From an uncultured Bordetella sp. (lineage in GTDB: Bacteria; Pseudomonadota; Gammaproteobacteria; Burkholderiales; SG8-39): DNA of 64,000 bases. The stretch is taken from the NCBI GenBank assembly GCA_964599095.1, contig CAZREB010000014.1, positions 64,033-128,032 on the forward strand, written 5' to 3'. Of the stretch, positions 219 to 22,226 are shown piece by piece. Positions within the stretch are counted from its first letter, which is position 1; each line of letters starts with the position of its first letter. The position numbers and the translations under genes were made by a program. The notes under the pieces were generated by a model that ran no database searches, was not told the DNA's origin, and worked only from the letters and a program-made list of their open reading frames with translations.

Positions 219-2006
219 ATGCAACGTGCCCTGAAGAAGGCAGTAGCGAGAACCCGGCCTCGCTCGCCGGCTTTTCAGACGGAACCGCCGCCCTCCCGCC
301 GGCAGGAATGCGTCGAGCCCGCCGTACAAATGCGGATAGCGGACGATGTCCTGAGCTACCAGCAGGACTTGTGGCAGCGCGGCGTTCTTTTTCTGGACAT
401 CCTGCGCGAACGCGCCAACAACATGCTCGACCATGAACAGGCCGGACTGCCGCCATTGCTCGACTTTCCCTACGAAATGGTTCTCGATGCGCGCACCTTC
501 GACAAACCTGCGAACTACGCGCTGCTGCGGATAGTCGCGACCGGCGACCCGTGCTTCGATGCCTGCGCCGACGAATCGAAACCGCCCGTGATCGTGGTGG
601 ATCCGCGCGCGGGGCATGGTCCCGGTATTGGCGGATTTAAACGCGACTCGGAAGTGGGAATTGCGTTGCACGAGGGCCATCCCGCGTATTTCGTGATTTT
701 TTATCCGCGCCCTTGTCCGGGGCAAACCCTCGCCGACGTGCATCACGCGCTGCGTCGCTTCGTGGCGGAGGTGGCGAGGCGTCACCCCGGAAAGCCGCCG
801 GTGTTGTACGGCAACTGCCAGGGCGGGTGGGCGGTGGCACTGCTCGCGGCCGATTGCGTCGGCCTCGCCGGGCCGGTGGTCATGAACGGCTCACCGCTTT
901 CCTACTGGGCGGGCGAATCCGGCGCGAATCCGATGCGCCTCGCCGGCGGACTGCTCGGCGGCACATGGCTTTCGCACCTGACCGCAGACCTGTCCGCAGG
1001 CGTGTTCGACGGCGCCTGGCTTGCGCAGAACTTCGAGAGCCTGAATCCCGCAAATGCGCTGTGGGACAAGAACTACGCGGTGCTGGCCGATCCCGAAGGC
1101 GAACGCGAGCGATTTCTGAAATTCGAGCGTTGGTGGGGCGGATTCTATTTCCTCGGCCGCGAGGAAATCGTGTCGATCGTGGAGAATCTGTTCGTCGGAA
1201 ACAAGCTCGAGCAGGGTGTGATGCGCATCTGCGAATGCTGCTTCGCCGACCTGAAGCGCATCCGCAATCCCATCGTGGTTTTTGCATCTTCGGGCGACAA
1301 CATCACGCCCCCGCACCAGGCGCTCAACTGGGTACCGGAGGTCTACCCGAGCACCGACGATCTCAAACGCGCCGGTCAACGGATCGTGTACCTCCTCAAT
1401 CCACATGTTGGCCATCTCGGCATATTCGTCTCGGCGGCGGTGGCGCGATTCGAACACCGCGCGATCCTCGAGAATTTGGCGGAGATCGAGGCACTCGAGC
1501 CGGGGCTGTATGAGATGAAGATTCTCAACCCGACCGGCAATCCGGAGTGCCGCAAAGACCAGTACCACGTACATTTCGAGGCACGCCGCGTCGAGGACAT
1601 CCGCTTCGTCTATCCCCGCGATTCGTTCGAGCGTGTCAAGGCGGTGTCCGAATGGAATGAATGGGCTTATTCGAACTTCGTCAGCCCGTGGATGCGCGCC
1701 TTCGCGACGCCGATTTCGGCCGAATTGTCGAAGTGGCTGCACCCGATGCGAACGTCCCGCTACGCTTTCTCGGAGCGGTTTTCGCCGTGGATGGCAGCAA
1801 TTCCCGCGCAGGCGGCGCTGGTGCGCGAAGATCGCCGTCCGGCGGAGGCGGACAATCCGTATCTGAAGATCGAGCAGGCCGTAGGCAGGCAGATTTCCAG
1901 TTCGCTCGGCCTCTGGAGGTCCGTCGCGGACCAGTCGAATGAAAGCCTGTTCGCGCTCATATACGGATCGTCGCCGGGCGCCGGACCAGGTGCCGGAAGT
2001 GGATGA
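219..2006 (+). CDS. DUF3141-family alpha/beta-hydrolase-like protein (family often linked to PHA/acetate metabolism)
   Basis: 595-aa ORF with N-terminal WQRGVLFLDILRERANN and a GNCQGGWA nucleophile-elbow-like motif, both as remembered for DUF3141. ATG 330 (MRIADD...) is an alternative start. Confidence 0.65.
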   Translation: MQRALKKAVARTRPRSPAFQTEPPPSRRQECVEPAVQMRIADDVLSYQQDLWQRGVLFLDILRERANNMLDHEQAGLPPLLDFPYEMVLDARTFDKPANYALLRIVATGDPCFDACADESKPPVIVVDPRAGHGPGIGGFKRDSEVGIALHEGHPAYFVIFYPRPCPGQTLADVHHALRRFVAEVARRHPGKPPVLYGNCQGGWAVALLAADCVGLAGPVVMNGSPLSYWAGESGANPMRLAGGLLGGTWLSHLTADLSAGVFDGAWLAQNFESLNPANALWDKNYAVLADPEGERERFLKFERWWGGFYFLGREEIVSIVENLFVGNKLEQGVMRICECCFADLKRIRNPIVVFASSGDNITPPHQALNWVPEVYPSTDDLKRAGQRIVYLLNPHVGHLGIFVSAAVARFEHRAILENLAEIEALEPGLYEMKILNPTGNPECRKDQYHVHFEARRVEDIRFVYPRDSFERVKAVSEWNEWAYSNFVSPWMRAFATPISAELSKWLHPMRTSRYAFSERFSPWMAAIPAQAALVREDRRPAEADNPYLKIEQAVGRQISSSLGLWRSVADQSNESLFALIYGSSPGAGPGAGSG

Positions 2007-2098: not shown

Positions 2099-2530
2099 GT
2101 GACCGCGCTGAAGATTCCCATGCGATCGAGAGCTACCCGCCATATCCTCTGGAAACGCCGTTGGACGCTGATTGCGTCCTGGGCGGTGTTCTGGTTGCTG
2201 TCTGCCTTGGCGCCGTTTTGCAGCGGCTGGGCCGCGGCAATTGGTGCGGCGAGCAGTCATGCTGCGCATCACGCCGTGACGGTATCGGCCGACGATGATC
2301 ACGAACCGGCGCAAGACAAAGAACAATGCTGTCAAACCGACGTCGAAGCGTCCGCGCTTGAATCGAAATCGGAGCTCGCTTCTTCAATCGAGGGTGAGCT
2401 CCGACCGTGCGCGATCGTCGCACGGTCGATCGTCACGTTGGTGTCGACGTGCGATAGAAGTTACCGTGTCGAACCACCGTCGTGGCCTCCCCGACAGGTG
2501 TTCCAGGATACCCGCAGGCTCCGGATTTAA
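2099..2530 (+). CDS. small membrane-anchored Cys/His protein, paralog of 5956-6429 (CzcI/DUF2946-like class?)
   Basis: 143-aa ORF with one N-terminal TM containing VFWLLSALAPFC. The C-terminus PPSWPP...TRRLRI* is shared with the 5956-6429 product (APPSS...TRRLRI*). Confidence 0.4.
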   Translation: MTALKIPMRSRATRHILWKRRWTLIASWAVFWLLSALAPFCSGWAAAIGAASSHAAHHAVTVSADDDHEPAQDKEQCCQTDVEASALESKSELASSIEGELRPCAIVARSIVTLVSTCDRSYRVEPPSWPPRQVFQDTRRLRI

Positions 2531-2714
2531 CCCCTCGCTGTTTGCTTTCGGCGGGCGCCTCGTGGCGCGCCCTTCGCCGCTGCCGGTTGTGCCGGTGGTG
2601 GCTGACGACGAAACGGCATTCGATCTTCAGCGAGGGAATCATGAATTCATTCGAAAGTTTGCGACGCGTCCGCGCTATCGCGGCTCGGCTGCGGGCGTGG
2701 TTCGGGCTCGTCCC

Positions 2715-3152
2715 GTGAGAGTCAGCGAAATCGCCAGGCTGGTCGGCGTGAAGCCGCACGTGGTGCGCTATTACGTGCGTGCGGGTTTGCTCGAGCCGCG
2801 GCGCACTGCCGGAAACGGCTACAAGAAGTTTTTGTACGAAGACGTGACGCGACTGCGATGCATCAGGGCGGCTCGCAGCGTGGGGATGTCGATCACCGAA
2901 ATCAGCGGCCTTCTGGATAAGGTGCGTAATGGTGGCAACCTGCACGCGGAGATGCGTGATCTGGTTTTGCGCAAGCACGCCGAATTGACGGCTCGCCACA
3001 AAGCGCTCGGCCAGACGCTCGAGCAGCTGTGCCGGCTGAGGGCGCTTTGCGAGGCGCGCGATCCCGTGTGCCGGGACCTGGACTCGCTGTGTGAAGTCTT
3101 GGAGCAGTCCGATCGATGCGCGCCGGAAGCTCTGAGTATTTCCGGGTTCTAG
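2715..3152 (+). CDS. MerR-family transcriptional regulator (effector unknown, Cys-rich C-terminus)
   Basis: GTG start gives MRVSEIARLVGVKPHVVRYYVRAGLL, the canonical MerR wHTH N-terminus. The C-terminal coiled coil carries five Cys. Confidence 0.8.
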   Translation: MRVSEIARLVGVKPHVVRYYVRAGLLEPRRTAGNGYKKFLYEDVTRLRCIRAARSVGMSITEISGLLDKVRNGGNLHAEMRDLVLRKHAELTARHKALGQTLEQLCRLRALCEARDPVCRDLDSLCEVLEQSDRCAPEALSISGF

Positions 3153-3228: not shown

Positions 3229-4581
3229 ATGCGAATCGACGAGCGCATCGGTTGGAGAACGGCAGGCGCGGTGATCGCGACTGTCATTGCGTGGATCATG
3301 GCGATTCCCGGCGCACAAGCCGTGCCCAGCATGGGCCGGCAAACCGGCTACGAGTGCGCCAAATGTCACACCGTGTTTCCCGAACTGACGCCGTTCGGCC
3401 GGCAATTCAAGCTCGGCGCGTTCGCCATGAGTTCGGCAAAATGGGACGAAAAGCCTTTGGTCGAAAGAATACCGGTTTCCGGGCTCGTGCAACTCTCGAG
3501 AACCAGCACGAAGAATACCAGCGCGGGCGGCGCGACGCCGGGGACGGACTTCGTGCGCGATCGAGAGACGGTCCTCCAGGGCGCGGGGCTCTACTACGGC
3601 GGCAAGATTACCGAGAAGTCCGGTGCCCTGATCCAGTACAACTATGACGGGATCGAGGAAAGATGGGGCATGGAAATGTTCGATGCCCGCTACGCCGACG
3701 GCACCTCTCTGGCGGGAAAGGAGTTGACCTACGGCGTTACGCTCAACAACAACCCGACAGTGTCGGACATCTATAACAGCACCTCGGCGTGGGGATTTCC
3801 GCATACGGGATCCGCGGCACGGCAGATGCCCGCAGCTACGATGATCGACATGACGCTCGCCAGCCAGGTGGGCGGGATAGGAATCTACGGCCTGTGGGAT
3901 GATTTGGTCTACGCCGAAGTCGCCGCCTACAGGACAGCGCGCCGCAGCGCCTTCCGGTTCATGGGGGCGGGCGTGCCGAAAGAGACGGTGCTGGATGGCA
4001 CGGCACCGTACTGGCGCCTTGCGTTGCAAGGGGAATCCGGGCCAAGCAGTTTTTCCGCCGGCGCCTACGGCATGGTCGCCAAGGTTCTCACCGATCGGGA
4101 CAACGCTTCACTGGGGAGCGACAGATTCCGCGATTTCGGAATCGACGGCTTTTACCAATATATCAAAGGCGACCATACCTTGTCGGCAAGTGCTACCCGA
4201 ATTCGCGAGAAGCAGACCTGGGGCACTTCGTTCGCCCAGGGCCTCGTCTCCAACCCAAGCGGCACCCTCAATACTTTTCGAGCAAGCCTTCACTACTACT
4301 ATATGCGCAAGTGGGGAGGGGGAGTGCAATACTTCCGTACGACCGGCAGTTCTGACACCCTGCGCTACAACACGGGCGACGCCGTGATGGGAAGCGCCAA
4401 CGACAGCCCTAACAGCAAGGGCTATATTGCCGAGATCAATTACCTTCCGATACAAAACATCAAGCTCGCCCTCAGGTATACCGCCTACCAGCAGTTCAAC
4501 GGAGCGTCGACCGACTATATGCCGGGCAGGAACGCATCCGACAACAACAACCTGTTTTTGCTAGGCTGGATATTGTTTTGA
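3229..4581 (+). CDS. Cyc2-like fused monoheme cytochrome c / outer-membrane beta-barrel porin
   Basis: Signal peptide (..PGAQA/VPS). A single CAKCH heme motif lies about 12 residues after the predicted cleavage site, in the context GRQTGYECAKCHTVFPELTPFGRQFKLGA. About 400 aa of alternating Gly/Tyr/Ser/Thr-rich sequence follow, ending ...LLGWILF* (terminal aromatic residue typical of OMPs). Confidence 0.65.
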   Translation: MRIDERIGWRTAGAVIATVIAWIMAIPGAQAVPSMGRQTGYECAKCHTVFPELTPFGRQFKLGAFAMSSAKWDEKPLVERIPVSGLVQLSRTSTKNTSAGGATPGTDFVRDRETVLQGAGLYYGGKITEKSGALIQYNYDGIEERWGMEMFDARYADGTSLAGKELTYGVTLNNNPTVSDIYNSTSAWGFPHTGSAARQMPAATMIDMTLASQVGGIGIYGLWDDLVYAEVAAYRTARRSAFRFMGAGVPKETVLDGTAPYWRLALQGESGPSSFSAGAYGMVAKVLTDRDNASLGSDRFRDFGIDGFYQYIKGDHTLSASATRIREKQTWGTSFAQGLVSNPSGTLNTFRASLHYYYMRKWGGGVQYFRTTGSSDTLRYNTGDAVMGSANDSPNSKGYIAEINYLPIQNIKLALRYTAYQQFNGASTDYMPGRNASDNNNLFLLGWILF

Positions 4582-4639: not shown

Positions 4640-4987
4640 ATGAATCTGCGACAGTTGAGGCACGGGCTCGGAAATGCGGCCGCGGCGGCGATCTTACTCG
4701 GCGGCTCGAATCACGCCGCGGCGCTCGATGCCGACGGGGTTCAGGCGCTGATGAGAAAAAGCGATTGCTTCAAATGCCACGCGGTAGACAAGAAGAAGGA
4801 CGGCCCGATGTACCGGGAAATCGCGGCCAAGCTCAAGGCCAAGCCGGATTCCGAACAGAAGCTTTACACTCATCTCACAACCAATCCCAAAGTGGAAGTC
4901 GACGGCAAGAAGGAAGATCACGTCGCCCTCAAGACCAAGAACGACGCGGACATCAAAGACGTGATCAAGTGGATTCTGTCCCGTTGA
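4640..4987 (+). CDS. periplasmic class I monoheme cytochrome c (c551/c552-like)
   Basis: 115 aa with a signal peptide. CFKCHAVDKKKDGPMYREIAAK resembles C-x-x-CH-x-(ID/VD)-x-K-x-VGP-x-Y-x-x-(V/I)A-x-K of cytochrome c551. Confidence 0.8.
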   Translation: MNLRQLRHGLGNAAAAAILLGGSNHAAALDADGVQALMRKSDCFKCHAVDKKKDGPMYREIAAKLKAKPDSEQKLYTHLTTNPKVEVDGKKEDHVALKTKNDADIKDVIKWILSR

Positions 4988-5849: not shown

Positions 5850-5955
5850 GTAGCGTGCGAACCTTGCGCAAACGGCGCCGGGCGCGATGGACAGTGGCGG
5901 GCATCGAGATGCGGACTTGATTTCGATCAATCGATGCGCCCGATCAACGGCTAGA

Positions 5956-6429
5956 ATGCCCGGTATGTCAGTTGCAGTTCAAATTGGCGCGGCGACTCGC
6001 CTAGGCGCTTGGTTGCGAATCAGCGGAGTGGCGCGCGCGGGGCTGATCGTGGGCTGGCTGGTCTTCTGGCTGAATGCGGCGCTGTTTCCGTGCTGTGACG
6101 CGATGGCGGCGATCCTGAGCGGACATGCGGAGGGCGGGATGCGGCCGTCCTCGAGCGCGTCTTCATCGCCACATCCGGAATACGAAAATTCCGAATCCTC
6201 GGATCAATGCCCAGATGCGCCATGTGGCGAGAAGCTAGGCTCGGTGCCCGTCCCGGCGGGCAAGTTCGAAGTGAACCCGCCGGATCGTTCGCCGGCAGTC
6301 CGTATTGCCGCCGATTTGGCAGTCGCCATGCCCGTCGAGCACGTGTTTCGCGCGCCGAAAATCGGGGTTTCGCGCGCGCCCCCGTCTTCGCTGCGACACT
6401 ACCTGCGCACCCGCCGCCTGCGGATTTAG
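5956..6429 (+). CDS. small membrane-anchored Cys/His protein, paralog of 2099-2530
   Basis: TM segment LVFWLNAALFPCCDAM and His/Cys/acidic-rich middle (SSPHPEYENSESSDQCPDAPCGE). The C-terminus ...LRHYLRTRRLRI* has its last six residues identical to the 2099-2530 product. Upstream ATG 5887 is an alternative start. Confidence 0.4.
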   Translation: MPGMSVAVQIGAATRLGAWLRISGVARAGLIVGWLVFWLNAALFPCCDAMAAILSGHAEGGMRPSSSASSSPHPEYENSESSDQCPDAPCGEKLGSVPVPAGKFEVNPPDRSPAVRIAADLAVAMPVEHVFRAPKIGVSRAPPSSLRHYLRTRRLRI

Positions 6430-6586
6430 CCGCAGTTCCCATGGGATCTCAAAACCGCAACGCACTCGCGGTCCCAGGAGCCATCCGCTCGTTTCCTGCA
6501 ACCGGCCGCTTGTTCCAGTCTCGACTGACGGCGGATCGGTTCGAATCAATGATCAACCCGTTTGCAATCCAAAGGAAAATGCCATC

Positions 6587-7024
6587 ATGAAAACCTCGAT
6601 ACTGATTTCCGCAATTCTCGCCGCTACTTTGGCGGCGCCGATCGTTTCGGCGCAGGTGAAACCCGCGCCGGCGATGCCGTCGATGAATGCGGACGGCGAT
6701 AAACAGATGTCCGTGATGCAGGAGAACATGAAGAAGATGCAGCAACAGATGGAGAAGATCGGCGCGGCGAAGGACCCAAAGGAACGGCAAAAGCTCATGC
6801 AGGAGCATATGCAAACCATGACCGAAAGCATGAAGGCGATGCGCGGCATGGGCGGTCCGATGATGATGGACGACCGCAAAGGCGGCGGTATGATGGGCGG
6901 CATGAAGGACGGCGACATGAAGAAGCGCCAGGAAATGACCGAAAAGCGCATGGACATGATGCAGATGATGATGGAGCAGATGATGCAGCGCGAGCAGGCG
7001 AAGGATTCGATGCCGCATATGTGA
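6587..7024 (+). CDS. Met-rich periplasmic protein (putative Cu(I)/Ag(I)-binding)
   Basis: Signal peptide MKTSILISAILAATLAAPIVSA. Methionine content is extreme: MQENMKKMQQQMEK, GMGGPMMMDD, GGMMGGMKDGDMKK, MDMMQMMMEQMMQ. Confidence 0.7.
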   Translation: MKTSILISAILAATLAAPIVSAQVKPAPAMPSMNADGDKQMSVMQENMKKMQQQMEKIGAAKDPKERQKLMQEHMQTMTESMKAMRGMGGPMMMDDRKGGGMMGGMKDGDMKKRQEMTEKRMDMMQMMMEQMMQREQAKDSMPHM

Positions 7025-7162
7025 GCGGGAATCGCCGCCCTTTTGCATTGAACTCGCCTGGCTGATCTTCATGGCTGCGGTCGGCGAATGACTGCCCTTA
7101 GCGGATCCACGGGCGGCCGTCGGCTGCCTGCGGCCAGTCGCGCGACGGTCGCAAAGTGCCGA

Positions 7163-9076
7163 ATGAGGAGATACAGATCGGTGAAATCCTGTCCCTGGAT
7201 CGGGCGTGCTGCGTTTTTGGCATTGCTGTTTGGGCTGACGCATCTTCCGCCCGCCACTGGGCAGACGGACTCCGCAGAGCACGAATCCCATCATCCGGAA
7301 AAGGTCGCCGGACCCCATGCGGGGGGGGCTTCAGTCGGCGCGTCACCCGCCGATTCCGCCTCAGACCTTTCGGTCGCCGGGCCGGCCCGGGACGTCGGGG
7401 CGATGGGGGGCATGCAAAAAATGATGGAAGGAATGATGGGCGGAGGCAAGAGCGAGACTTATCCGCGCATGATGAGTCTTCCCGGCTCGACGCCCGAAAC
7501 GCGCTCCGAAGTGGAGCGTTCGGCCGAGAAGAGCATTCACGAAGGGACTGTTCTGCTGCGGGAAGCCCGCGAGCGCCTGGAGAAAGCGATCGAAGCCGGC
7601 GACCACGAAGGCGCGACAGGCGCGTTGCAGCAGACGCGCGACGCGATCGCGCGTTTGGAAAGCGGCGTTTCCTCGCACAGGGCGATACGCGAAGGCATTG
7701 CGCCGAAGGACCTCGCCCTGCGGTGGTACAAGCGCAATTTGGACCTGGCCGCAGCCGATCGCGCCGCTCCTGCGCATGGAATCTTCGGGTTGTCCTGGAT
7801 TCATTACCTGATGATGTCGATCCTCGTCGCGTCCGCCCTTATGACGCTCTGGATCTATCTGCATCGGGCGCGCCGCGTATCGGCCCTTCTCGAAAGACTG
7901 GCGAGCGGCCCGAAGGGAGGAGTCCCCGCGCGAGAATTTGCCGAGTCCGCGGTGGCGCCGAGCGCGACTGCGCAGGGCGTCCATCCGGACGCGGCTCCTT
8001 CCAGGTCGAATTCCTGGAGCGGCTTGCTGCAGGTGAAGCGGATTTTTCAGGAAACACCCCGGGTCAAGACATTCCGGCTCGCCGATCCCGCCGGCGGGCG
8101 GCTGCCGTTCAATTACCTGCCGGGGCAGTTCCTGACGCTCACCGTCGCGCCGAACGGGCAGGCGATCAAGCGTTCCTACACGATCGCGTCGTCCCCGACG
8201 CACCGGGATTACTGCGAAGTGACGGTGCGCCACGAAGATCGCGGAGCCGTTTCGGGTTATCTTCACGAACGCATCCGCGAGGGAGACGCGCTTCGGGTAA
8301 CGGCGCCATCCGGGAAGTTCACTTTCGACGGAAAGACCGGTCGCAGCATCGTGCTGATCGCGGGAGGCGTGGGCGTCACGCCGATGATGAGCGTGGTGCG
8401 CTACCTGACCGACCGCTCCTGGCCCGGCGATGTTTACCTCGTATACGGCTGCAAGGCCGACGACGATGTCATCTACCGCGAGGAGATCGAATATCTAGCG
8501 CGGCGGTACCCGAATTTCCATGTGACTCTGATTGCAGAGCGCGCGGGGCCAACGGGATGGAGTCATCGCGTCGGACGCATCACGCCGGGATTGCTAACGG
8601 AGTCGGTGCCCGACATTGCGTCGCGTCATGTGCACCTTTGCGGACCGGCGCCGATGATGGAAGCCGTCAGGCCGATGCTCGCATCGCTTGGGGTACCGGC
8701 GTCCGAGATCGAGACCGAGGTATTCATCGGCAAGGAGCGGCCGCAGCCGCTGCCGTCGCCCGGACCCCAGGCCGGAGCCGTGCAGGACGCGGATCTGCGG
8801 ACGGGGCCGTTGAGTGTCGCGAAGGCCACCTTCGAACGCTCGCGGAAGACGGCAGCGCTTCCACCAGGCAGGACCATACTCGAAGCCGCGGAAGACATTG
8901 GCGTGAACATCGAGTACTCATGCCGGGTGGGAACCTGTGGAACGTGCAAGGTGAAGCTGCTTGCCGGGACCGTGACAATGGATAGCGAGGAGGCTCTCGA
9001 ACCCGCCGACAAGGCGCTGCATCTGATCCTGGCGTGCCAGGCAAAGGCCACGAGCGATGTGTCGATCGACGCATAG
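7163..9076 (+). CDS. membrane-anchored FNR-like FAD/NAD(P)H oxidoreductase with C-terminal [2Fe-2S] ferredoxin domain and N-terminal periplasmic Met-rich domain
   Basis: Signal-like N-terminus, Met-rich stretch MGGMQKMMEGMMGGG, helical region, then a single TM (WIHYLMMSILVASALMTLWIYL) followed by HRARR (positive-inside rule). FAD motif RSYTIAS, NAD motif LIAGGVGVTPMMS, LCGPAPMM, then plant-type ferredoxin CRVGTCGTCKV...LACQ. Upstream ATG 7088 is an alternative start. Confidence 0.8.
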   Translation: MRRYRSVKSCPWIGRAAFLALLFGLTHLPPATGQTDSAEHESHHPEKVAGPHAGGASVGASPADSASDLSVAGPARDVGAMGGMQKMMEGMMGGGKSETYPRMMSLPGSTPETRSEVERSAEKSIHEGTVLLREARERLEKAIEAGDHEGATGALQQTRDAIARLESGVSSHRAIREGIAPKDLALRWYKRNLDLAAADRAAPAHGIFGLSWIHYLMMSILVASALMTLWIYLHRARRVSALLERLASGPKGGVPAREFAESAVAPSATAQGVHPDAAPSRSNSWSGLLQVKRIFQETPRVKTFRLADPAGGRLPFNYLPGQFLTLTVAPNGQAIKRSYTIASSPTHRDYCEVTVRHEDRGAVSGYLHERIREGDALRVTAPSGKFTFDGKTGRSIVLIAGGVGVTPMMSVVRYLTDRSWPGDVYLVYGCKADDDVIYREEIEYLARRYPNFHVTLIAERAGPTGWSHRVGRITPGLLTESVPDIASRHVHLCGPAPMMEAVRPMLASLGVPASEIETEVFIGKERPQPLPSPGPQAGAVQDADLRTGPLSVAKATFERSRKTAALPPGRTILEAAEDIGVNIEYSCRVGTCGTCKVKLLAGTVTMDSEEALEPADKALHLILACQAKATSDVSIDA

Positions 9077-9114
9077 CGGCCGGCGGCGCCTCGCCAGGTA
9101 TCCCGGGATTGCAA

Positions 9115-9867
9115 ATGCAGCCTGATCGGTCCGCGGTCACGGGATGGATCCTGCTCCTGCTGGCATTGTGGACGGGTTTTCTTATGCATCAATCTCCTCG
9201 GTTCCCCGGCAGTCCGTGGGGCGGGGTGTTCGGAGTGTCCGCGGCGGTCCTGCTGCTGGTGCCGCTCGGATATTCCGCTCTGAAGCGTCTGGAGTGGTTG
9301 AAGGAGCGGATTGGCGCTCGGCTGTCTCTCGCAAGAGGGCTGGCCTGGCATGTGAACGCCAGCATCGGCGGGGCGTTTCTCGCCGTTTTGCATTCCGGAC
9401 ACCGGTTCGACAGTTGGCTGGGAATTTCTTTGATGGCGGCGATGCTGCTTGCGATACTGAGCGGCTACGCCGGCCGATATTTCCTCGGTTTTCTAACGCA
9501 AGACCTGAAGGCGCGCGAGGACGCGCTCGAAGCCCTGCAATCCGACTACGACCGGCTCGCGGCCGAGATCGCCGTACATCCCGCCCGGGAATTCGAGGGT
9601 ACCGGGACTTTCGGCCTGCGCAGCCGGATTGCCGAGGCGATCGGCCGTCCGTCCGCGCCGAAAAGACAGGAGGACCCCGGACGGCGCGTGTTCGAGATTG
9701 CCGAGGCCATGGTCGACACCGAATATGCAATCGTCGCCGACGAGACCCTGAAGCGCAAATTGCGGATTTGGCTCGCAGTTCACATCGCGGTCTCGGTTTC
9801 CTTTTATGGACTGCTTGCGCTGCATGTCTGGGGCGGGATCCAGTTCGGTCTGCGGTGGTTCTCATAG
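9115..9867 (+). CDS. five-TM membrane protein with two intramembrane His pairs (putative di-heme b, ferric-reductase/NOX-like)
   Basis: Predicted TM3 is WHVNASIGGAFLAVLH and TM5 is VHIAVSVSFYGLLALH. Each has two His exactly 14 positions apart, the geometry of bis-His di-heme transmembrane domains. The start lies 38 nt after the reductase gene. Confidence 0.5.
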   Translation: MQPDRSAVTGWILLLLALWTGFLMHQSPRFPGSPWGGVFGVSAAVLLLVPLGYSALKRLEWLKERIGARLSLARGLAWHVNASIGGAFLAVLHSGHRFDSWLGISLMAAMLLAILSGYAGRYFLGFLTQDLKAREDALEALQSDYDRLAAEIAVHPAREFEGTGTFGLRSRIAEAIGRPSAPKRQEDPGRRVFEIAEAMVDTEYAIVADETLKRKLRIWLAVHIAVSVSFYGLLALHVWGGIQFGLRWFS

Positions 9868-9868
9868 C

Positions 9869-10612
9869 GTGGGCGGACGGCGGCTTATCGTGGTCTTGCT
9901 AGCATTTGGCGCACTCTCGTTGGCCGCTGGATCGGACTTGGCCGGGGAGGATTCGCTCATGCGCGCGGTTTGGCGAAGGGCCGTCATGCCCGGTGCGTTG
10001 TCCGGATCTCACGCTTTCCTTGCCGACGACTGCGCTGCCTGCCACGTTCCGGTAAATGGGGTCGATCCTGCGCGTTGCGTCGCATGTCATGCCGACAATG
10101 GTGCACTTCTGCAGCGGCAGCCGACGGCGTTTCATGCCGACATTCAGGCCTGCTCGGGGTGCCACGTCGAGCACCAGGGCACCGTGCGAATGCCGACGAC
10201 CATGAATCACGCGCATCTGGCACGCACCGGTTTGCAGCTGGCTGCCGCCGAATCGCAGGAAGAGCGCGCGCGGTTGCTCGTCCCTGGGCGCGCCGGTGCG
10301 GGAGAATCGCTGCTGAAATGCGCTAGCTGTCACGCGACCAAAGACCGCCATCAAGGCTATTTCGGCGCCGACTGCGGCCAGTGCCATGCGACCGCGGTGT
10401 GGACGATTTCCGATTTCCGCCATCCGTCGCCGCGATCGACCGAATGCGCCCAGTGCCACAAACCGCCGCCGAGTCACGCCATGATGCATTTCTCGATGGT
10501 CTCCGCGGCGGTTGCGCGCCAACCGAAGGCCGAGGCGGGCCAGTGCTACCTCTGCCACCAAACGACTTCCTGGAACGATATCAAAGGCGTCGGCTGGTTC
10601 AAGCATCACTAG
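9869..10612 (+). CDS. periplasmic heptaheme c-type cytochrome (c3/c7-like)
   Basis: Seven CxxCH motifs: CAACH, CVACH, CSGCH, CASCH, CGQCH, CAQCH, CYLCH. GTG 9869 gives the signal-like N-terminus VGGRRLIVVLLAFGALSLAAG, 1 nt after the upstream stop. Confidence 0.8.
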   Translation: MGGRRLIVVLLAFGALSLAAGSDLAGEDSLMRAVWRRAVMPGALSGSHAFLADDCAACHVPVNGVDPARCVACHADNGALLQRQPTAFHADIQACSGCHVEHQGTVRMPTTMNHAHLARTGLQLAAAESQEERARLLVPGRAGAGESLLKCASCHATKDRHQGYFGADCGQCHATAVWTISDFRHPSPRSTECAQCHKPPPSHAMMHFSMVSAAVARQPKAEAGQCYLCHQTTSWNDIKGVGWFKHH

Positions 10613-10639
10613 TCGAGCCGCTTAGAGGAGGGAAAACGC

Positions 10640-12127
10640 ATGCTCGAGTATCGGAATACCAACGAAAAGCCAATTGGAACATCGCAAATGGCAAACGGGC
10701 AACAGGGCGAAAATTCACCCCTTGGCCAGTCCCGCGGGATGCGGCTTTCATTCCTTGGGGCAGCCGGAACGGTGACAGGATCGCGGTACCTGGTGCAGAT
10801 CGACGACCGCAAGATACTGGTGGATTGCGGCCTTTTTCAAGGTTACAAGCCGCTGCGATTGCGCAATTGGGCGCCGTTTCCCTTTCCTCCGCCCGAGATC
10901 GATGCGGTCGTCCTGACGCACGCGCACCTCGACCACAGCGGCTACCTGCCCGCGCTGGTGCGCGATGGTTTTCGCGGGCCGATCTTTTGCAGCGGAGGAA
11001 CTCGCGAACTCGCGCAGATCCTCCTCCCGGACAGCGGGCGCCTGCAGGAGGAGGAAGCGCAGTACGCGAATCGGAAGCGCTATTCGAAGCATCACCCGGC
11101 ATTGCCGCTGTATTGCGAGGACGACGCGAGGAAGGCGCTCGAACGCTTCCGGGCCATTGAATTCGGCCAGCCCTTGGAATTTGCCCCGGGTGTGCACGTC
11201 GAGTTGCACCCGGCCGGGCACATGATTGGAGCGTCATGCGTCAAGATCTCGGGCAGGGCCGAGACGATTCTTTTCTCCGGCGACGTCGGCAGGCCGAACG
11301 ACGCGATCCTCTCGGCCCCAACGACAGGACTCGAAGCGGACTATCTGGCGGTCGAGTCGACCTATGGAAACAGGTCGCACCCGAAGGAGGATGCGGAGGC
11401 GGTTCTTGCGGAAATCATCAATCGCACCGCGGCGCGCGGCGGGGTCGTGGTCATCCCGGCGTTCGCAGTCGGCCGCGCCCAGGCCTTGATGTATTTCTTG
11501 TGGCGGCTCAAGTCGGGCGGGAGAATTCCCGATCTTCCCGTTTTTCTGAACAGTCCGATGGCGACCGACGCGACCGCGGTCTACCATCGCCACCGTACGG
11601 AGCATCGCCTCTCCCCGGAGCAATGCAAGGGGATGTGCACCGTCGCGAAGATCGTGCGCTCGGTAGAAGAATCGCGTGCGCTGAACAGGATTAGGCAGCC
11701 GGCCGTGATCGTCTCGGCAAGCGGGATGGCCACTGGAGGCAGGGTGCTGCATCACCTGAAGGCATTCGCGCCCGACCCCAGGAACACAATTCTCTTTGCC
11801 GGCTATCAGGCCGGCGGTACCCGCGGAGCCCGCCTTGTGGCCGGCGAGCGCGAGATCCGAATCCATGGCGACGATGTGCAGGTGCGCGCGGAGGTGCTCA
11901 ATATCGACAGTCTTTCCGCTCACGCCGACGCCGACGAAATAATCACTTGGCTGCGCACGTTCGGGAAGCCGCCGCGGCAAACGTTCGTCACGCACGGCGA
12001 GCCCGCCGCCGCCGACGCGCTGCGTCGGAGGATCGAGCGCGAAATGGGCTGGAAGGCCGGGATTCCCGAGCATTTGGAGAACGTTGATCTCGAATTGAAA
12101 ACGCCCGGGACGGGAGCTGGGAAATGA
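10640..12127 (+). CDS. MBL-fold / beta-CASP family hydrolase (RNA-metabolising metallo-beta-lactamase type)
   Basis: FLGAAGTVTGSRYLV, VLTHAHLDHSGYLPAL (HxHxDH) and the C-terminal beta-CASP motif ...SAHAD.... A strong RBS (GAGGAGGG) sits 7 nt before the ATG. Confidence 0.8.
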   Translation: MLEYRNTNEKPIGTSQMANGQQGENSPLGQSRGMRLSFLGAAGTVTGSRYLVQIDDRKILVDCGLFQGYKPLRLRNWAPFPFPPPEIDAVVLTHAHLDHSGYLPALVRDGFRGPIFCSGGTRELAQILLPDSGRLQEEEAQYANRKRYSKHHPALPLYCEDDARKALERFRAIEFGQPLEFAPGVHVELHPAGHMIGASCVKISGRAETILFSGDVGRPNDAILSAPTTGLEADYLAVESTYGNRSHPKEDAEAVLAEIINRTAARGGVVVIPAFAVGRAQALMYFLWRLKSGGRIPDLPVFLNSPMATDATAVYHRHRTEHRLSPEQCKGMCTVAKIVRSVEESRALNRIRQPAVIVSASGMATGGRVLHHLKAFAPDPRNTILFAGYQAGGTRGARLVAGEREIRIHGDDVQVRAEVLNIDSLSAHADADEIITWLRTFGKPPRQTFVTHGEPAAADALRRRIEREMGWKAGIPEHLENVDLELKTPGTGAGK

Positions 12128-13641
12128 ATGGCCAACTGTCCCATCTCCTTCGCTTGAGACGTGTGGGCATCGACACGTATCAGGAATCGGTCGTCTACAT
12201 GCATCGCGATTGCCATGTATGCCGGTCCGAGGGTTTCGCTGCCCAGTCGCGCGTGCTTCTGCGCAGCAACGGCGTCGAGTTGATTGCGACCCTCAACGTT
12301 GTCGAGTCGTCCATCGTTTCGCCGGGCGAGGCGGGACTTTCGGAAAGCGCGTGGCGCAAGTTCGGCGCGCGCGAAGGAACTGCTCTGGAGGTCGGACCCG
12401 TGCCGCCGATCGAATCGTTGGCGCGGGTGCGGGGCAAGCTGCACGGCGAGCGCCTCAGCGACCCGGATCTGCGGGCTATCGTCGCGGATATCGCCGCTGG
12501 ACGCTACGCCGACATCCAGCTCGCGGCATTCGTATCCGCCTGCGCCGGCGGGCGTCTCGACCGCGAGGAGATCGTCGGGCTCACGAAGGCGATGATCGAT
12601 TCGGGAGACAGGCTGATTTGGCCGCGCGGTGCGAAGATCGCGGATAAGCACTGCGTAGGCGGCCTTCCGGGCAACCGGACCACGTTGATCGTGGTCCCGA
12701 TCCTCGCCGCTGCCGGCCTGACGATGCCCAAGACGTCATCCCGGGCGATCACGTCGCCCGCCGGGACGGCGGACACGATGGAAACGCTTGCCCCCGTCGA
12801 TCTCGACCTGGCGTCGATCCGCCGCGTGGTGGAGCGGGAGGGGGGCTGCATCGTATGGGGTGGCGCGGTGGGACTGAGCCCCGCGGACGATGCCCTCATT
12901 CGAGTGGAGCGGCCGCTCGACCTGGACAGCGAAGCGCAACTCGTCGCCTCGGTCATTTCGAAGAAGGTCGCGGCCGGATCGACCCACGCAGTCATCGACA
13001 TACCAGTAGGCCCGACAGCCAAGGTTCGCTCGGCCATCGCGGCGCGTGCGTTGGGAGAGACGCTCGAGTACGTGGCCGCCCGGGTTGGACTTCTGGCAAA
13101 GATCGTCGTCACCGACGGAATGCAGCCTGTCGGTCGTGGGATCGGTCCGGCACTCGAGGCGCGTGACGTGCTGCAGGTGCTGCGCGGCGAACATGCCGCG
13201 CCTGAAGATTTGCGGGAGCGCGCCCTTGCACTGGCGGGCGCCTTGTTCGAGCACCTGGAAGCCGCGCCTTTCGGCAAAGGCATCGTGCGTGCGAGGCAAG
13301 TTCTGGAAAGTGGTGCGGCATGGCGCAAGTTCGAGGCCATCTGCGAGGCGCAAGGTGGACTGCGCGAGTTGCCGCACGCGGCGCATACGCGGCCCTGGCT
13401 CGCAGTGCACGGAGGTAAGGTAGCGGCCATCGATAATCGCAGCCTCGCGCGGGCAGGAAAACTCGCCGGGGCGCCGCGGGACCCGGAAGCCGGTATCGAC
13501 CTCCACGTTCGTCTCGGCACGCGAATCGCGAGAGGTGAGCCCCTGTTCACGCTACATGCCAATTCCCCGGGGGAACTCGACTACGCGCTTGCTTACGTCG
13601 AGGCGCATCGGACGCTGATTCGTGTGGAGCCGGACTCGTGA
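12124..13641 (+). CDS. thymidine phosphorylase family protein, archaeal AMP-phosphorylase-like subtype with N-terminal extension
   Basis: 505 aa with DKHCVGGLPGNRTT, TSSRAITSPAGTADTME and S-x-ISKK motifs of pyrimidine-nucleoside phosphorylases. The start ATG overlaps the upstream stop (ATGA). Confidence 0.85.
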   Translation: MNGQLSHLLRLRRVGIDTYQESVVYMHRDCHVCRSEGFAAQSRVLLRSNGVELIATLNVVESSIVSPGEAGLSESAWRKFGAREGTALEVGPVPPIESLARVRGKLHGERLSDPDLRAIVADIAAGRYADIQLAAFVSACAGGRLDREEIVGLTKAMIDSGDRLIWPRGAKIADKHCVGGLPGNRTTLIVVPILAAAGLTMPKTSSRAITSPAGTADTMETLAPVDLDLASIRRVVEREGGCIVWGGAVGLSPADDALIRVERPLDLDSEAQLVASVISKKVAAGSTHAVIDIPVGPTAKVRSAIAARALGETLEYVAARVGLLAKIVVTDGMQPVGRGIGPALEARDVLQVLRGEHAAPEDLRERALALAGALFEHLEAAPFGKGIVRARQVLESGAAWRKFEAICEAQGGLRELPHAAHTRPWLAVHGGKVAAIDNRSLARAGKLAGAPRDPEAGIDLHVRLGTRIARGEPLFTLHANSPGELDYALAYVEAHRTLIRVEPDS

Positions 13642-14564
13642 CGCCGGTCGTATTCGCACTGCCCGGCAACGAGGCCATGGCCGATGCGCTTGCTGCCCGC
13701 CTGGCCGCCGAGCGGGGCGCTTGCACAGTACGGCGCTTTCCGGACGACGAATCCTATGTGCGGGTCGAAACCGCGGTTTCCCGTCGCGACGCGATCCTGG
13801 TATGCACGCTCGACAGGCCGGATGGTCGAATCGCCCAGCTCCTGCTCCTGGCATCGGCTGCGAGGGAGTCGGGCGCCATGCGGGTGGGGTTGGTTGCGCC
13901 GTATCTCGCGTACATGCGCCAGGACGCCCGGTTCTCTCCGGGGGAGTGCGTGAGCGCGAAGGTGTTTGCGCGATGGATCGGGTCGCACTTCGACTGGCTG
14001 GTCACCGTCGATCCGCATCTGCATCGCTTCGCAAACCTGGTGGAGCTATACCCGATCCCGACGCGCGCCGCCCATGCCGCACCGGCGATCGCCGCGTGGC
14101 TGTGTGAAAACGTCCCCGCGCCAGTGCTGGTCGGCCCGGACATGGAGAGCGCGCAATGGGTTGAAGAGGTAGCGCGCCTTGCCGGTGCGCCGAGCATCGT
14201 GCTCGCCAAGCGGCGCCGTGGCGACCGCGAGGTGGAGGTGTCGATCCCGGACCCGGCAATGCTCGTTGGCCGCACCCCGGTTTTGGTCGACGATATTGTC
14301 TCGACGGCGCACACGATGATCGCGGCGGTGCGCCACCTGCGCGTGGCAGGCCTCGCGCCACCGGTTTGCATTGCGGTGCATGGAATCTTTGCCGGCGATG
14401 CGCTCCATGCGCTGCAGGCCGCCGGCGCTGGCCGCGTCGTGAGTTGCGACACCATTCCTCACTCAACGAACGCCATTGCCCTCGACGAGGTTCTTTGGTC
14501 TTGCATTGCGGACCTGCTTGCCAACGGCCCGCCTCCGAACCTTGACGACAAGGCGACGGGGTGA
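13638..14564 (+). CDS. ribose-phosphate pyrophosphokinase (PRPP synthetase) family protein
   Basis: RFPDDESYVR, APYLAYMRQD, VDPHLH and PRPP-binding loop VLVDDIVSTAHTM. The GTG start overlaps the upstream stop (GTGA). Confidence 0.85.
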   Translation: MTPVVFALPGNEAMADALAARLAAERGACTVRRFPDDESYVRVETAVSRRDAILVCTLDRPDGRIAQLLLLASAARESGAMRVGLVAPYLAYMRQDARFSPGECVSAKVFARWIGSHFDWLVTVDPHLHRFANLVELYPIPTRAAHAAPAIAAWLCENVPAPVLVGPDMESAQWVEEVARLAGAPSIVLAKRRRGDREVEVSIPDPAMLVGRTPVLVDDIVSTAHTMIAAVRHLRVAGLAPPVCIAVHGIFAGDALHALQAAGAGRVVSCDTIPHSTNAIALDEVLWSCIADLLANGPPPNLDDKATG

Positions 14565-15427: not shown

Positions 15428-15829
15428 ATGAAGACGCCGTTGGCGATTATATTGGTCGCCACGATGGTTGCTGCTGCCGGGACTGGAGGTTACCTTGTCG
15501 CCACGCGCGAATTGCGTTCGCCTGACGTTCCGGAGGCGCACCAAAAGAAATCAGGCGAACCGGGCGCCGCGCTTCACAAGGGGCGAGGCGTGGTCACAGG
15601 GGTAAGCGCTCCAGACGGCTATCTCGAGCTCAAGCACGAGCCGATTCCTTCGATGAAATGGGACGTGATGCAGACGGGATTTGCGGTCACGGACACGAAG
15701 CTGCTGGAAGGGCTGAAGAAAGGCGACATCGTCGAGTTCGAGATGCGCGGCCTGCCGAACAAGGACGGCGACTTCGTGATCGAGAAGGTGGCACCGCTTA
15801 CCGGCGGGAATGCGCGCAGTACGCCTTGA
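15428..15829 (+). CDS. CusF/SilF-like periplasmic Cu(I)/Ag(I)-binding protein
   Basis: GRGVVTGVSAPDGYLELKHEPIPSMKWDVMQTGFAVTDTKLLEGLKKGDIVEFEM follows the CusF fold pattern (G-x-V-x-x-I... H-x-P-I-x-x-L-x-W-P-x-M-T-M-x-F). Confidence 0.7.
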   Translation: MKTPLAIILVATMVAAAGTGGYLVATRELRSPDVPEAHQKKSGEPGAALHKGRGVVTGVSAPDGYLELKHEPIPSMKWDVMQTGFAVTDTKLLEGLKKGDIVEFEMRGLPNKDGDFVIEKVAPLTGGNARSTP

Positions 15830-15991: not shown

Positions 15992-16651
15992 TTACCGCCA
16001 GAGCCGCGGCTTTTGATGGGCAAATCGCGCGACGACCGCTGCCGATCCGCCGATCAGAAACCCGGCCACGACATCGGCAGGAAAGTGAGCGCCCGCGGCG
16101 ATGCGCGACCACCCGATCCATCCGGCGTACGACAGCAAGGCGGCCCGGAATCCTCGTGCGCGGAAGGGCCAGAGTATTGCGACCACCAACATTGCATTGG
16201 CCGCATGGCCGCTCGGAAACGAGTACACGAGCTCCGGTTCTCCGACAATTCGCGCGATTTTCGGGAGAGCCACGAGCGGGCGCGGAAAATCCGCGACCAC
16301 TTTCAGGAGAAAAACCGCAAGCCACGCGAGCAGGATTGCAACGAGGACGCCCGATGCTCGAGCGCGAATTGTCGACGCCGCGGTTTCGGCGCCAAGCGGA
16401 GTCCTCATGCCCTTGGACCAAACATGGATAACGGTTAGTACCAGTAGCGCACCCCAACGACTGCCAAACACATCGCCCAACCATACCAGCGAAACCAGAG
16501 AATCGGGCGTCGCCTGATTGATGGCAGCGAACCAGGCCGCATTCAGGCCGTTCCAGTCGTAGAGAAGACGCTTCAATGCCGGCGCAGCAATCTCAACCCG
16601 TTGAACACCACCAGCAGGCTCGCGCCCATGTCGGCGAAAACCGCCATCCAC
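15992..16651 (-). CDS. PAP2-family phosphatase (PbrB/undecaprenyl-pyrophosphatase-like)
   Basis: PAP2 motifs PSGHAANA and SRIAAGAHFPADVVAG. The longest ORF starts at ATG 16651 but overlaps the ATPase 3' end by 79 nt. TTG 16576 would overlap the ATPase stop as TTGA, which looks like translational coupling. Confidence 0.75.
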   Translation of the reverse strand: MDGGFRRHGREPAGGVQRVEIAAPALKRLLYDWNGLNAAWFAAINQATPDSLVSLVWLGDVFGSRWGALLVLTVIHVWSKGMRTPLGAETAASTIRARASGVLVAILLAWLAVFLLKVVADFPRPLVALPKIARIVGEPELVYSFPSGHAANAMLVVAILWPFRARGFRAALLSYAGWIGWSRIAAGAHFPADVVAGFLIGGSAAVVARFAHQKPRLWR

Positions 16652-18741: not shown

Positions 18742-18775
18742 GGTGTGAAAGCGACCTCCGGATTCGATTCCCGCG

Positions 18776-18806
18776 ATTGAACATCCTGTAGTGGCTACAG
18801 AGTCAA
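18776..18806 (-). promoter_or_regulatory. MerR-type (CadR/PbrR/ZntR-like) promoter-operator of the ATPase, divergent from the regulator gene
   Basis: The minus strand reads TTGACT-ctgtagccactacaggatg-TTCAAT. The spacer is 19 bp and contains the palindrome CTGTAG-N3-CTACAG (18786-18800). Confidence 0.75.
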
Positions 18807-18847
18807 GCGCTAAAATGGTGCTCGTGAGCAAATTCTGCGCGAATACC

Positions 18848-19330
18848 ATGAAGATCGGTGAACTGGCAATTTCTACCCGTACCCCGGTCGAAACGATCCG
18901 GTTCTACGAACGCGAGGGACTGATGCTTTCCCCGTCGCGCAGCGGCGGCAATTTCCGCATCTACTCCGGCGAGCACATTGAACGCCTCACTTTCATCCGC
19001 CGCTGCAGATCGCTGGACATGACGCTCGATGAAGTGCGGGCCTTGCTGCTGCTCAAGGATTCGCCCGCGGGGGATTGCGGTGACGTGAGCGCGGTTCTGG
19101 ACGCGCACATAGGCCACGTGGATGCGCGCATCATGGAGCTCGAGGTCCTCAGCGGGCAGCTCGCGCGTCTTCGAGCGCGGTGCCTGGAGGCGCGCCGGGC
19201 GGAGGACTGCGGGATCCTGAAAGAACTATCCCGTGCGCCGAGTGCTTCGCGCGTGCAGCCGGCCGGGCATGTCGGCGGTGCTCATCGCCATTCTGCCAAC
19301 CGCAAGAGCCCCGCTTCGGGCAAACGATGA
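18848..19330 (+). CDS. MerR-family metal-responsive regulator (CadR/PbrR/ZntR subgroup)
   Basis: MKIGELAISTRTPVETIRFYEREGLM wHTH. Cys residues at the dimerisation helix (DCGDV, RARCLE, EDCGIL) are typical of CadR/PbrR. It is divergent from the ATPase. Confidence 0.85.
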   Translation: MKIGELAISTRTPVETIRFYEREGLMLSPSRSGGNFRIYSGEHIERLTFIRRCRSLDMTLDEVRALLLLKDSPAGDCGDVSAVLDAHIGHVDARIMELEVLSGQLARLRARCLEARRAEDCGILKELSRAPSASRVQPAGHVGGAHRHSANRKSPASGKR

Positions 19331-22217: not shown

Positions 22218-22226
22218 GGAGCGGAC

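Follow-up and report, generated by a model that had tools for sequence, protein, structure and literature searches.

A conserved, mobile three-gene cassette predicted to pass electrons from NAD(P)H to the periplasm in bacterial copper-resistance contexts

Introduction

The closest described counterparts of the three-gene cassette reported here are the NOX and FRE enzymes of the FRD superfamily, including the eukaryotic NOX/FRE proteins and the bacterial csNOX5 and SpNOX, in which a cytoplasmic NAD(P)H/FAD dehydrogenase delivers electrons to two stacked b haems held by histidine pairs on transmembrane (TM) helices 3 and 5, with exit on the outer side. The haem-ligating histidines of NOX2 are 101/115 and 209/222 (PMC3591440), and FRE and STEAP enzymes reduce Cu(II) besides Fe(III) (PMC7558416). 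The cassette, comprising genes g1, g2 and g3, occupies positions 7163–10612 of a 64,000-nucleotide stretch of contig CAZREB010000014.1 from an uncultured Bordetella sp. (assembly GCA_964599095.1; hereafter the window). It shares with these enzymes the cytoplasmic dehydrogenase, a H-x13-H-T-G-x-H-like motif in TM3 and, by prediction, the haem pair and the outward exit. It differs in being split over separate polypeptides, with a five-helix g2 to which g1 is proposed to contribute a sixth helix in trans, and in possessing an extra [2Fe-2S] relay, a heptahaem cytochrome c and a periplasmic His/Met domain. Whereas the NOX dehydrogenase is of the FAD_binding_8/NAD_binding_6 type and lies C-terminal to TM6 in the same chain, the FNR module of g1 is of the PDR/BenC type (FAD_binding_6/NAD_binding_1), and the haem-type TM domain of the cassette resides on another polypeptide.

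Two further groups of bacterial systems invite comparison. The MsrQ (YedZ)/Fre/MsrP system likewise combines a haem b membrane protein, a cytoplasmic NAD(P)H-flavin reductase as donor and a periplasmic partner, and is relevant to copper stress through the repair of CusF; unlike the cassette, its reductase gene is unlinked, its periplasmic partner is a molybdoenzyme rather than a multihaem cytochrome, and MsrQ lacks the first TM3 histidine (PMC3591440). The DUF4405/PepSY_TM di-haem cytochromes FoxB and CrpH are, like g2, small bacterial membrane proteins with four central histidines that direct electrons to the periplasm, a role that is predicted for g2. The structural study of FoxB reportedly describes no dedicated cytoplasmic electron donor. 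CrpH, a PepSY_TM haem protein of Bordetella, is proposed in a 2026 paper to be a copper-acquisition reductase; the accessible portion of that source concerns copper acquisition for oxidases under starvation and describes no dedicated cytoplasmic donor, whereas the cassette occurs in resistance islands and possesses g1. CrpH is the closest functional analogue of the cassette, albeit from a different family and context. As for the reductase itself, phthalate dioxygenase reductase (PDR), Hcr, PaaE and GbcB have the same fold of FNR plus C-terminal plant-type ferredoxin as residues 285–637 of g1, but PDR-type reductases are soluble and serve oxygenases, while g1 is membrane-anchored. NqrF provides a precedent for a membrane-anchored FNR/[2Fe-2S] subunit feeding a transmembrane electron path, but its domains come in the reverse order and none is periplasmic.

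CusCFBA, P1B-type ATPases and Met-rich chaperones handle only Cu(I), yet the copper of oxic environments comes as Cu(II). A review from 2020 lists as bacterial cupric reductases only CcoG, NDH-2-dependent reduction and uncharacterised activities, with none dedicated to this task in the periplasm (PMC7558416). CcoG carries two [4Fe-4S] clusters and acts in cbb3-oxidase assembly, NDH-2 acts unspecifically through quinols, and neither is a haem-based transmembrane chain found in resistance islands. A dedicated chain of this kind would supply the missing Cu(II)-to-Cu(I) step in periplasmic copper handling; conserved and horizontally mobile in copper islands, it would be a new metal-resistance component, and as a natural NOX-like machine split into subunits it would be useful for the study of FRD/NOX evolution. 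A search of the full-text literature found no paper describing the g1–g2–g3 cassette, and no description of the g2 family was found in the libraries searched. The cassette combines a known reductase module with two undescribed families, namely the putative g2 membrane cytochrome and the periplasmic domain of g1.

An almost obligate gene trio in copper-resistance contexts

We propose, with a probability of roughly one half, that the products of g1, g2 and g3 form a single membrane complex that would draw electrons from NAD(P)H in the cytoplasm and deliver them to the periplasmic side as part of the copper-stress repertoire. A more specific proposal, which we put forward tentatively, is that the cassette acts as a haem-based cupric reductase of the periplasm, dedicated to this task and driven by NAD(P)H, a mobile 'split NOX' feeding Cu(I) to Met-rich chaperones, CusF and CusCBA. 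Such a machine would join a di-haem b protein of a new family to a [2Fe-2S] relay and a heptahaem wire, and would have a Cu-capturing periplasmic domain of its own. An initial annotation of the window had placed the three genes at the coordinates given above, with spacings of 38 nucleotides between the g1 stop and the g2 start and of 1 nucleotide between g2 and g3, all of which we confirm; its interpretation of the trio as a three-polypeptide exporter of electrons from NAD(P)H to the periplasm is supported as a prediction, and each of the refuting conditions it had named that sequence analysis can address was decided in favour of that interpretation.

Relatives of g2 were found in 222 species (one genome per species). 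The locus counts below refer to the best 80 loci, and the adjacency counts to those with enough flanking sequence (72 for g1, 75 for g3). These 80 loci span Acidobacteriota, Bacteroidota, Planctomycetota, Verrucomicrobiota, Nitrospirales, Gamma-, Beta- and Alphaproteobacteria, Omnitrophota and Methylomirabilia, and the g1–g2–g3 order is kept across at least nine phyla. Gene g1 lies directly upstream of g2 at 67 of 72 loci and nearby at the other five, such that the two co-occur at all 72, and g3 lies directly downstream of g2 at 73 of 75. In annotated copies, neighbouring genes of the trio overlap by 1–4 nucleotides. The three genes are an almost obligate trio across phyla. Of the 54 plasmids found to carry the cassette, 27 are conjugative. 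Among the 54 are plasmids of L. pneumophila, Alteromonas macleodii, Sphingobium and Variovorax, and also plasmids with copper-resistance multicopper oxidase, CopB or ATPase genes. Carriers include Legionella, Alteromonas megaplasmids, sphingomonads, Bacteroidota, Planctomycetota and Nitrospirales; cultivable organisms among the carriers, such as Variovorax, Sphingomonas sanxanigenens, Dyadobacter and Alteromonas, make the proposal directly testable.

The most informative fact about the cassette, and one absent from the initial annotation, is its copper-resistance context. A multicopper oxidase, CopB, P1B-ATPase, DUF411 protein or Met-rich Metal_resist/LTXXQ protein is encoded within 8 kb at 62 of the 80 loci. 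Judged by its gene content, which includes CusF, a P1B-ATPase and a CusCBA-type efflux system (Table 1), the window is itself a copper island. In related loci the position directly upstream of g1 is occupied by a Metal_resist/LTXXQ-type periplasmic protein, and a Metal_resist, LTXXQ or Met-rich protein is encoded at 37 of the 80 loci; in the window this position holds a small Met-rich secreted protein, which is likely an accessory partner.

The copper context is equally compatible with a role of the same export chain in protection or repair, in which g3 would give reductant to copper-damaged periplasmic targets by a logic resembling that of MsrQ–MsrP; variants of this idea include the removal of peroxide or superoxide and the re-reduction of oxidised Met-rich chaperones through a partner. 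Met-rich proteins do flank the cassette, and E. coli requires MsrPQ for CusF to stay functional under copper stress (PMC9302797). We consider this role rather unlikely, since the loci examined show no conserved Msr, peroxidase or thiol-oxidoreductase gene beside the cassette, and the conserved His/Met motifs of g1 and g3 resemble metal sites rather than protein-docking sites.

Two observations concern the spacing of g1 and g2. At two Planctomycetota loci (L035 and L067) a gene for a P1B-type copper ATPase is inserted between them, which directly links the cassette in physical terms with Cu(I) export. At L011, L014 and L018, from Acidobacteriota and 'Heliomicrobium'-labelled metagenome-assembled genomes, the two genes are separated by ~0.85–1.2 kb, suggesting an extra inserted gene.

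g1, a membrane-anchored reductase with a periplasmic His/Met domain

The g1 protein comprises, in order, a signal peptide, a periplasmic domain with His/Met motifs, one TM helix, an FNR module and a C-terminal plant-type [2Fe-2S] ferredoxin. Its N-terminus is hydrophobic and of signal type, ending AxA|Q; an independent public gene call places the start at 7181, six codons downstream of 7163. The reductase portion matches the Pfam families FAD_binding_6 (residues 299–387, E 2.7e-13), NAD_binding_1 (398–503, E 4.1e-22) and Fer2 (558–630, E 5.9e-18), bearing out the FNR-plus-ferredoxin assignment of the initial annotation, while a match to NAD_binding_6 (E 0.0096) fell under the Pfam cut-off. The four [2Fe-2S] ligands, Cys587, Cys592, Cys595 and Cys625, are invariant in the homologue alignment. 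The AlphaFold2 model (predicted local distance difference test score, pLDDT, 81) finds its top fold match in PDR (2PIA; E 4.7e-24, TM-score 0.74). With these three domains, four cysteines and a PDR-like fold, g1 belongs to the PDR/BenC class of reductases; it scored under the cut-off of every NCBIfam equivalog compared, namely GbcB (217 versus 500 bits), Hcr (213 versus 383), PaaE (183 versus 421) and NqrF (74 versus 295).

Hydropathy and the AlphaFold2 model place a single TM helix ahead of the FNR module, again in line with the initial annotation, and the HRARR motif noted there, together with R238, lies on its cytoplasmic side. Toward the periplasmic end of this helix, H214 and M218 are invariant. 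Enclosed between the signal peptide and a positively flanked TM helix, the N-terminal domain would be periplasmic, provided that the NAD(P)H module is cytoplasmic.

This periplasmic part, of ~170 residues, opens with an invariant E-H-x-x-H-H-P motif directly past the signal cleavage site, followed by a disordered P/A/S-rich linker, a methionine cluster (M84, M87, M88, M91 and M104) and the motif K-E-L-Y-P-S-L-M. Residues 111–192 are modelled with confidence as a three-helix bundle, and a P-H-G-x-F motif precedes the TM helix. The initial annotation had described a periplasmic, Met-rich domain of about 200 residues: the periplasmic placement holds on the strength of the flanking signal peptide and TM helix, but 'Met-rich' is apt only for the short cluster (MGGMQKMMEGMMGGG...RMM), methionine making up 4.7% of the entire domain. 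No recurrent match to a Pfam or PDB family was obtained for it, the lone SMBP hit being weak (E 0.011) and confined to the window protein. Membership of the Metal_resist/LTXXQ family (CpxP/Spy/ZraP-like) was considered and set aside: comparison with 48 neighbouring Metal_resist/LTXXQ proteins gave an hhalign probability of 18% over 41 columns and Pfam returned no match, so that there is no profile similarity and kinship is not demonstrated. A word-indexed homologue search with the N-terminal 290 residues alone returned zero matches, whereas full-length g1 recovers its orthologues, which number 2320 clusters at E ≤ 1e-60 and bear generic names only. The domain can thus be regarded as a new protein part that has no family among those searched.

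g2, a putative di-haem b cytochrome

The g2 protein carries the pairs H79-x13-H93 and H223-x13-H237 in its predicted third and fifth TM helices. All four histidines, whose presence in TM3 and TM5 had been claimed in the initial annotation, are invariant in 58 homologues of 34–65% identity, as are H25 and H96. The AlphaFold2 model (pLDDT 85; predicted TM-score 0.73) contains helices at residues 3–21, 34–58, 72–94, 101–154 and 188–249, which together with hydropathy define five TM helices, TM4 and TM5 being extended as a long cytoplasmic helical hairpin that bears a conserved AEAIADxEYAI motif. The basic TM2–TM3 loop (KRLEWLKERIGAR) and the 90-residue loop indicate a topology with the N-terminus inside and the C-terminus outside. 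On two parallel helices, H79 and H223 would then be located toward the cytoplasm and H93 and H237 toward the periplasm. In the model, this layout is the classic bis-haem arrangement, with the invariant H25 and H96 predicted to lie at the periplasmic face. The FRD enzymes have the same two pairs on the same two helices, and g2 may work like an FRD protein.

Profile comparisons point in the same direction. DUF4405 (PF14358) matches 43 of the 58 family members at E ≤ 10, with a best E of 9.5e-5; inspected members score 15–22 bits against a gathering score of 26.7 bits, and the matches span TM5 or TM2–TM3, including the histidine pairs. Ferric_reduct (PF01794) appears below threshold in 19 of 58 members (best E 0.0019; e.g. 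11 bits versus a cut-off of 28), and Ni_hydr_CYTB in 11 of 58. All of these recurrent sub-threshold matches are to di-haem cytochrome b families, and a purified DUF4405 protein binds haem b (PMC11334425). In addition, the TM3 motif WHxxxGxxGAxLAxLHTGHxF aligns with the csNOX5 TM domain (5O0T, FHKLVGQVMFALAIVHTGAHF) with both histidines matched, as is the HTGxH(F) motif that follows; it is the one recognisable alignment to a PDB sequence and is suggestive only, in view of its E of 0.74. Mean-field direct coupling analysis of TM3–TM5 packing with 189 sequences (effective number 143) gave a signal dominated by gap artefacts.

An exhaustive profile search recovered 2507 representatives of 50%-identity clusters at E ≤ 1e-3, of which 132 were at E ≤ 1e-30. 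Two representatives carry the g2 domain within longer proteins, P0184 (545 residues; domain at 1–257, then ~290 residues) and P0253 (465 residues; domain at 259–392), and are candidates for natural fusions, g3 being one conceivable partner, which could corroborate the partnership.

g3, a heptahaem cytochrome c

Translation of g3 from the GTG at 9869 yields a signal peptide and seven CxxCH motifs. A public gene call begins instead at the ATG at 9959 (217 residues), which would remove the signal peptide needed by a c-type cytochrome, and the plasmid copies that are annotated show a 4-nucleotide overlap of g3 with the g2 stop; both points favour 9869. Exactly seven CxxCH motifs are present in 81 of 84 homologues, in agreement with the seven-haem cytochrome recognised directly after g2 in the initial annotation, and ten additional histidines are conserved, which would be enough for bis-His ligation of every one of the seven haems and leave three over. 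The motif P-P-S-H-x-M-x-H-F-x-M (residues 200–210) and a C-terminal HH are likewise conserved. With a hydrophobic N-terminus, multiple haem-binding motifs, sufficient distal histidines and a Cytochrome_C7 match (Pfam, E 2.6e-8), g3 is a multihaem cytochrome c, for which no relative of solved structure was found by sequence.

A seven-haem wire exceeds the need of a one-electron Cu(II)/Cu(I) step, and this excess, together with the co-occurrence of the cassette with the Cu/Ag-type efflux genes CusF and CusCBA, would suit a chain that takes periplasmic Cu, Ag or Au ions down to the elemental state, detoxifying by precipitation with g3 in a multi-electron role. We give this idea little credence: the sequence data offer it no specific support, and the conserved Met-rich motifs fit the hand-off of Cu(I) better than nucleation.

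Proposed electron path

In the proposed path, NAD(P)H would reduce the FAD of the g1 FNR module, from which single electrons would pass to the tethered C-terminal [2Fe-2S] cluster. The [2Fe-2S] domain may then dock on the cytoplasmic hairpin of g2 and reduce the inner haem b (H79/H223). Across the membrane, the outer haem b (H93/H237) would receive the electron, which would then reach the seven c haems of g3. The TM helix of g1, located directly ahead of the FNR module as TM6 is in NOX, could supply the sixth helix in trans, and its H214 and M218, if beside H25 and H96 of g2, could form a surface metal site.

The acceptor is most probably periplasmic Cu(II), which would be reduced to Cu(I); this assignment draws on the copper context and on the conserved periplasmic His/Met motifs. 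Cu(II) might be captured by the EHxxHH and MxxMM motifs of g1, the membrane-surface H25/H96/H214/M218 cluster and the HxMxHFxM motif of g3. Cu(I) is what Met-rich chaperones, CusF/CusCBA and the multicopper oxidase recognise. The outward direction follows from thermodynamic reasoning, reduction of NAD(P)+ by a periplasmic copper couple against the membrane potential not being feasible. Inward flow, from a periplasmic donor to NAD(P)+, was accordingly rejected, since with copper couples it would run against the redox gradient and also against the membrane potential.

Evidence against the proposal

Several observations weigh against the reading of the cassette as a copper-linked, NOX-like electron exporter. 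The first set concerns g2. The window protein gave no above-threshold match in Pfam, NCBIfam or PDB sequences, and phmmer and hmmsearch against PDB sequences likewise returned nothing significant. A Foldseek search of its AlphaFold2 model against the PDB yielded nothing at E < 0.1, only ABC-transporter/BAR-type helical noise, and hhalign comparison of the g2 profile with MsrQ and YodB of E. coli, each as a single sequence, gave no signal. No FRD superfamily profile matched g2 above its curated threshold. The six-TM FRD core fold (e.g. 5O0T) is not seen in g2, which has five TM helices and no Foldseek match, and NOX/FRE enzymes gave no significant sequence match either. The spacing of the TM5 pair also departs from that of NOX2, where His-209 and His-222 are separated by x12 (PMC3591440) rather than x13; the initial annotation's equation of the His spacing with that of NOX/FRE enzymes therefore stands for TM3 but not for TM5. 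These comparisons do not demonstrate that g2 is homologous to NOX/FRE, and g2, although FRD-like in its predicted working, is not filed among the FRD proteins and is best treated as a family of its own.

The lack of any above-threshold haem-family match or structural match for g2 could be taken to mean that its TM histidines are not haem ligands and instead line a copper translocation path, or that g2 is a quinol-linked cytochrome unrelated to g1, in either of which cases there would be no chain from NAD(P)H to the periplasm. We regard this as very improbable given two histidine pairs, each 14 residues apart on parallel helices as in the classic bis-haem arrangement, the restriction of the sub-threshold matches to di-haem cytochrome b families, and the invariable company of g1 and g2 at the 72 loci already described.

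The second set concerns context. At 18 of the 80 loci there is no copper gene within 8 kb. On the Alteromonas macleodii plasmid pAM1A3 the cassette adjoins [NiFe]-hydrogenase structural and maturation genes, and in Ca. Nitronereus thalassa the genes that come after g1–g2, on the other strand, encode TonB, a TonB-dependent receptor and ExbBD. The last of these copies would fit a ferric or ferric-siderophore reductase loosely tied to copper, as would the names attached to g2, which is called 'iron reductase' on three plasmid copies in RefSeq and 'Ferric reductase like transmembrane...' in UniRef; moreover, FRE and PepSY_TM haem proteins reduce Fe(III) (PMC3591440, PMC13038864). We judge an iron function improbable, since the neighbours are overwhelmingly copper genes rather than iron-uptake genes and the Met clusters are ligands of the Cu(I)/Ag(I) type.

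Two Nitrospirae/Nitrospirales loci (L001 and L029) have g1–g2 without g3; a third, L002, ends at the end of g2. The two loci imply that the heptahaem protein is not strictly required, which suggests that g1–g2 may be a core that is catalytic alone, with g3 a wire to further acceptors. Finally, a Cu(II) reductase working beside a Cu(I)-oxidising multicopper oxidase would amount to an apparent futile cycle.

Neighbouring genes

The coordinates of the cassette and of other features of the window are collected in Table 1. For the MerR/CueR-family regulator upstream of the cassette, the true start is probably internal to the open reading frame. Scans for promoters, terminators and inverted repeats over ~6300–10800 turned up no signal beyond that expected from shuffled sequence, and no operator of the MerR type.

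Table 1. Positions of the cassette genes, their parts and other features within the window.
Feature	Position	Strand	Description	Basis
g1	7163..9076	+	637 aa, membrane-anchored reductase	
g1 periplasmic domain	7262..7777	+	residues 34-205	alignments of 78 and 67 homologues, AlphaFold2
g1 TM helix	7778..7867	+	residues ~206-235	hydropathy, AlphaFold2, alignments
g1 FNR module and [2Fe-2S] domain	8015..9076	+	residues 285-523 and 553-637	Pfam, alignment, fold match
g2	9115..9867	+	250 aa, five TM helices, putative di-haem b cytochrome	
g3	9869..10612	+	secreted heptahaem cytochrome c, GTG start	
Met-rich secreted protein	6587..7024	+	145 aa, 22% Met	translation, hydropathy, independent gene call
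CusF	15428-15829	+		
P1B-ATPase	16573-18849	-	with HMA domain	
MerR-type regulator	18791-19330	+		
CusC/CusB/CusA-type efflux	19744-25328	+	OEP-MFP-RND	
MerR/CueR-family regulator	2295..3152	+	helix-turn-helix from ~residue 142	
DUF3141 protein	219-2006	+	E 9e-211	
Small paralogue, upstream copy	2099-2530	+	one TM helix	
Secreted monohaem protein	3229-4581	+	450 aa, signal peptide	
Monohaem class I cytochrome c	4640-4987	+		
Small paralogue, downstream copy	5887-6429	+	one TM helix	
RNase-like/phosphorylase/synthetase trio	10640-14564	+	directly 3' of g3	

The gene trio directly 3' of g3 encodes a beta-CASP metallo-beta-lactamase RNase-like protein, an archaeal-type thymidine/AMP phosphorylase and a PRK07199-type phosphoribosyl pyrophosphate synthetase. 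Whole or in part, it recurs by the cassette in unrelated genomes (L007, L037, L051, L034, L048 and L005); it has no PADLOC match and no evident copper link.

Upstream of the cassette, the secreted monohaem protein has a single CAKCH near its N-terminus and a long C-terminal region ending in an aromatic residue, a layout analogous to that of the Cyc2-type fused monohaem cytochrome-porins of iron oxidisers. It has no Pfam or NCBIfam match and no homologue among the 90 related loci, and the gene for the class I cytochrome c lies downstream of it. The two small paralogues have Cys/His-containing tails and a shared C-terminal ...RRLRI, with no family match for either. On the L. pneumophila conjugative plasmid pH3-D-14 (L091), the cassette adjoins an extra F0F1-ATPase operon with AtpZ/AtpI, as well as genes for an ICMT-family protein, a DUF2933 protein and a very large multicopper-oxidase-domain protein. 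This plasmid also has a DUF3141 gene (18371–18744) in the vicinity of the cassette; the DUF3141 gene of the window is located at the island edge.

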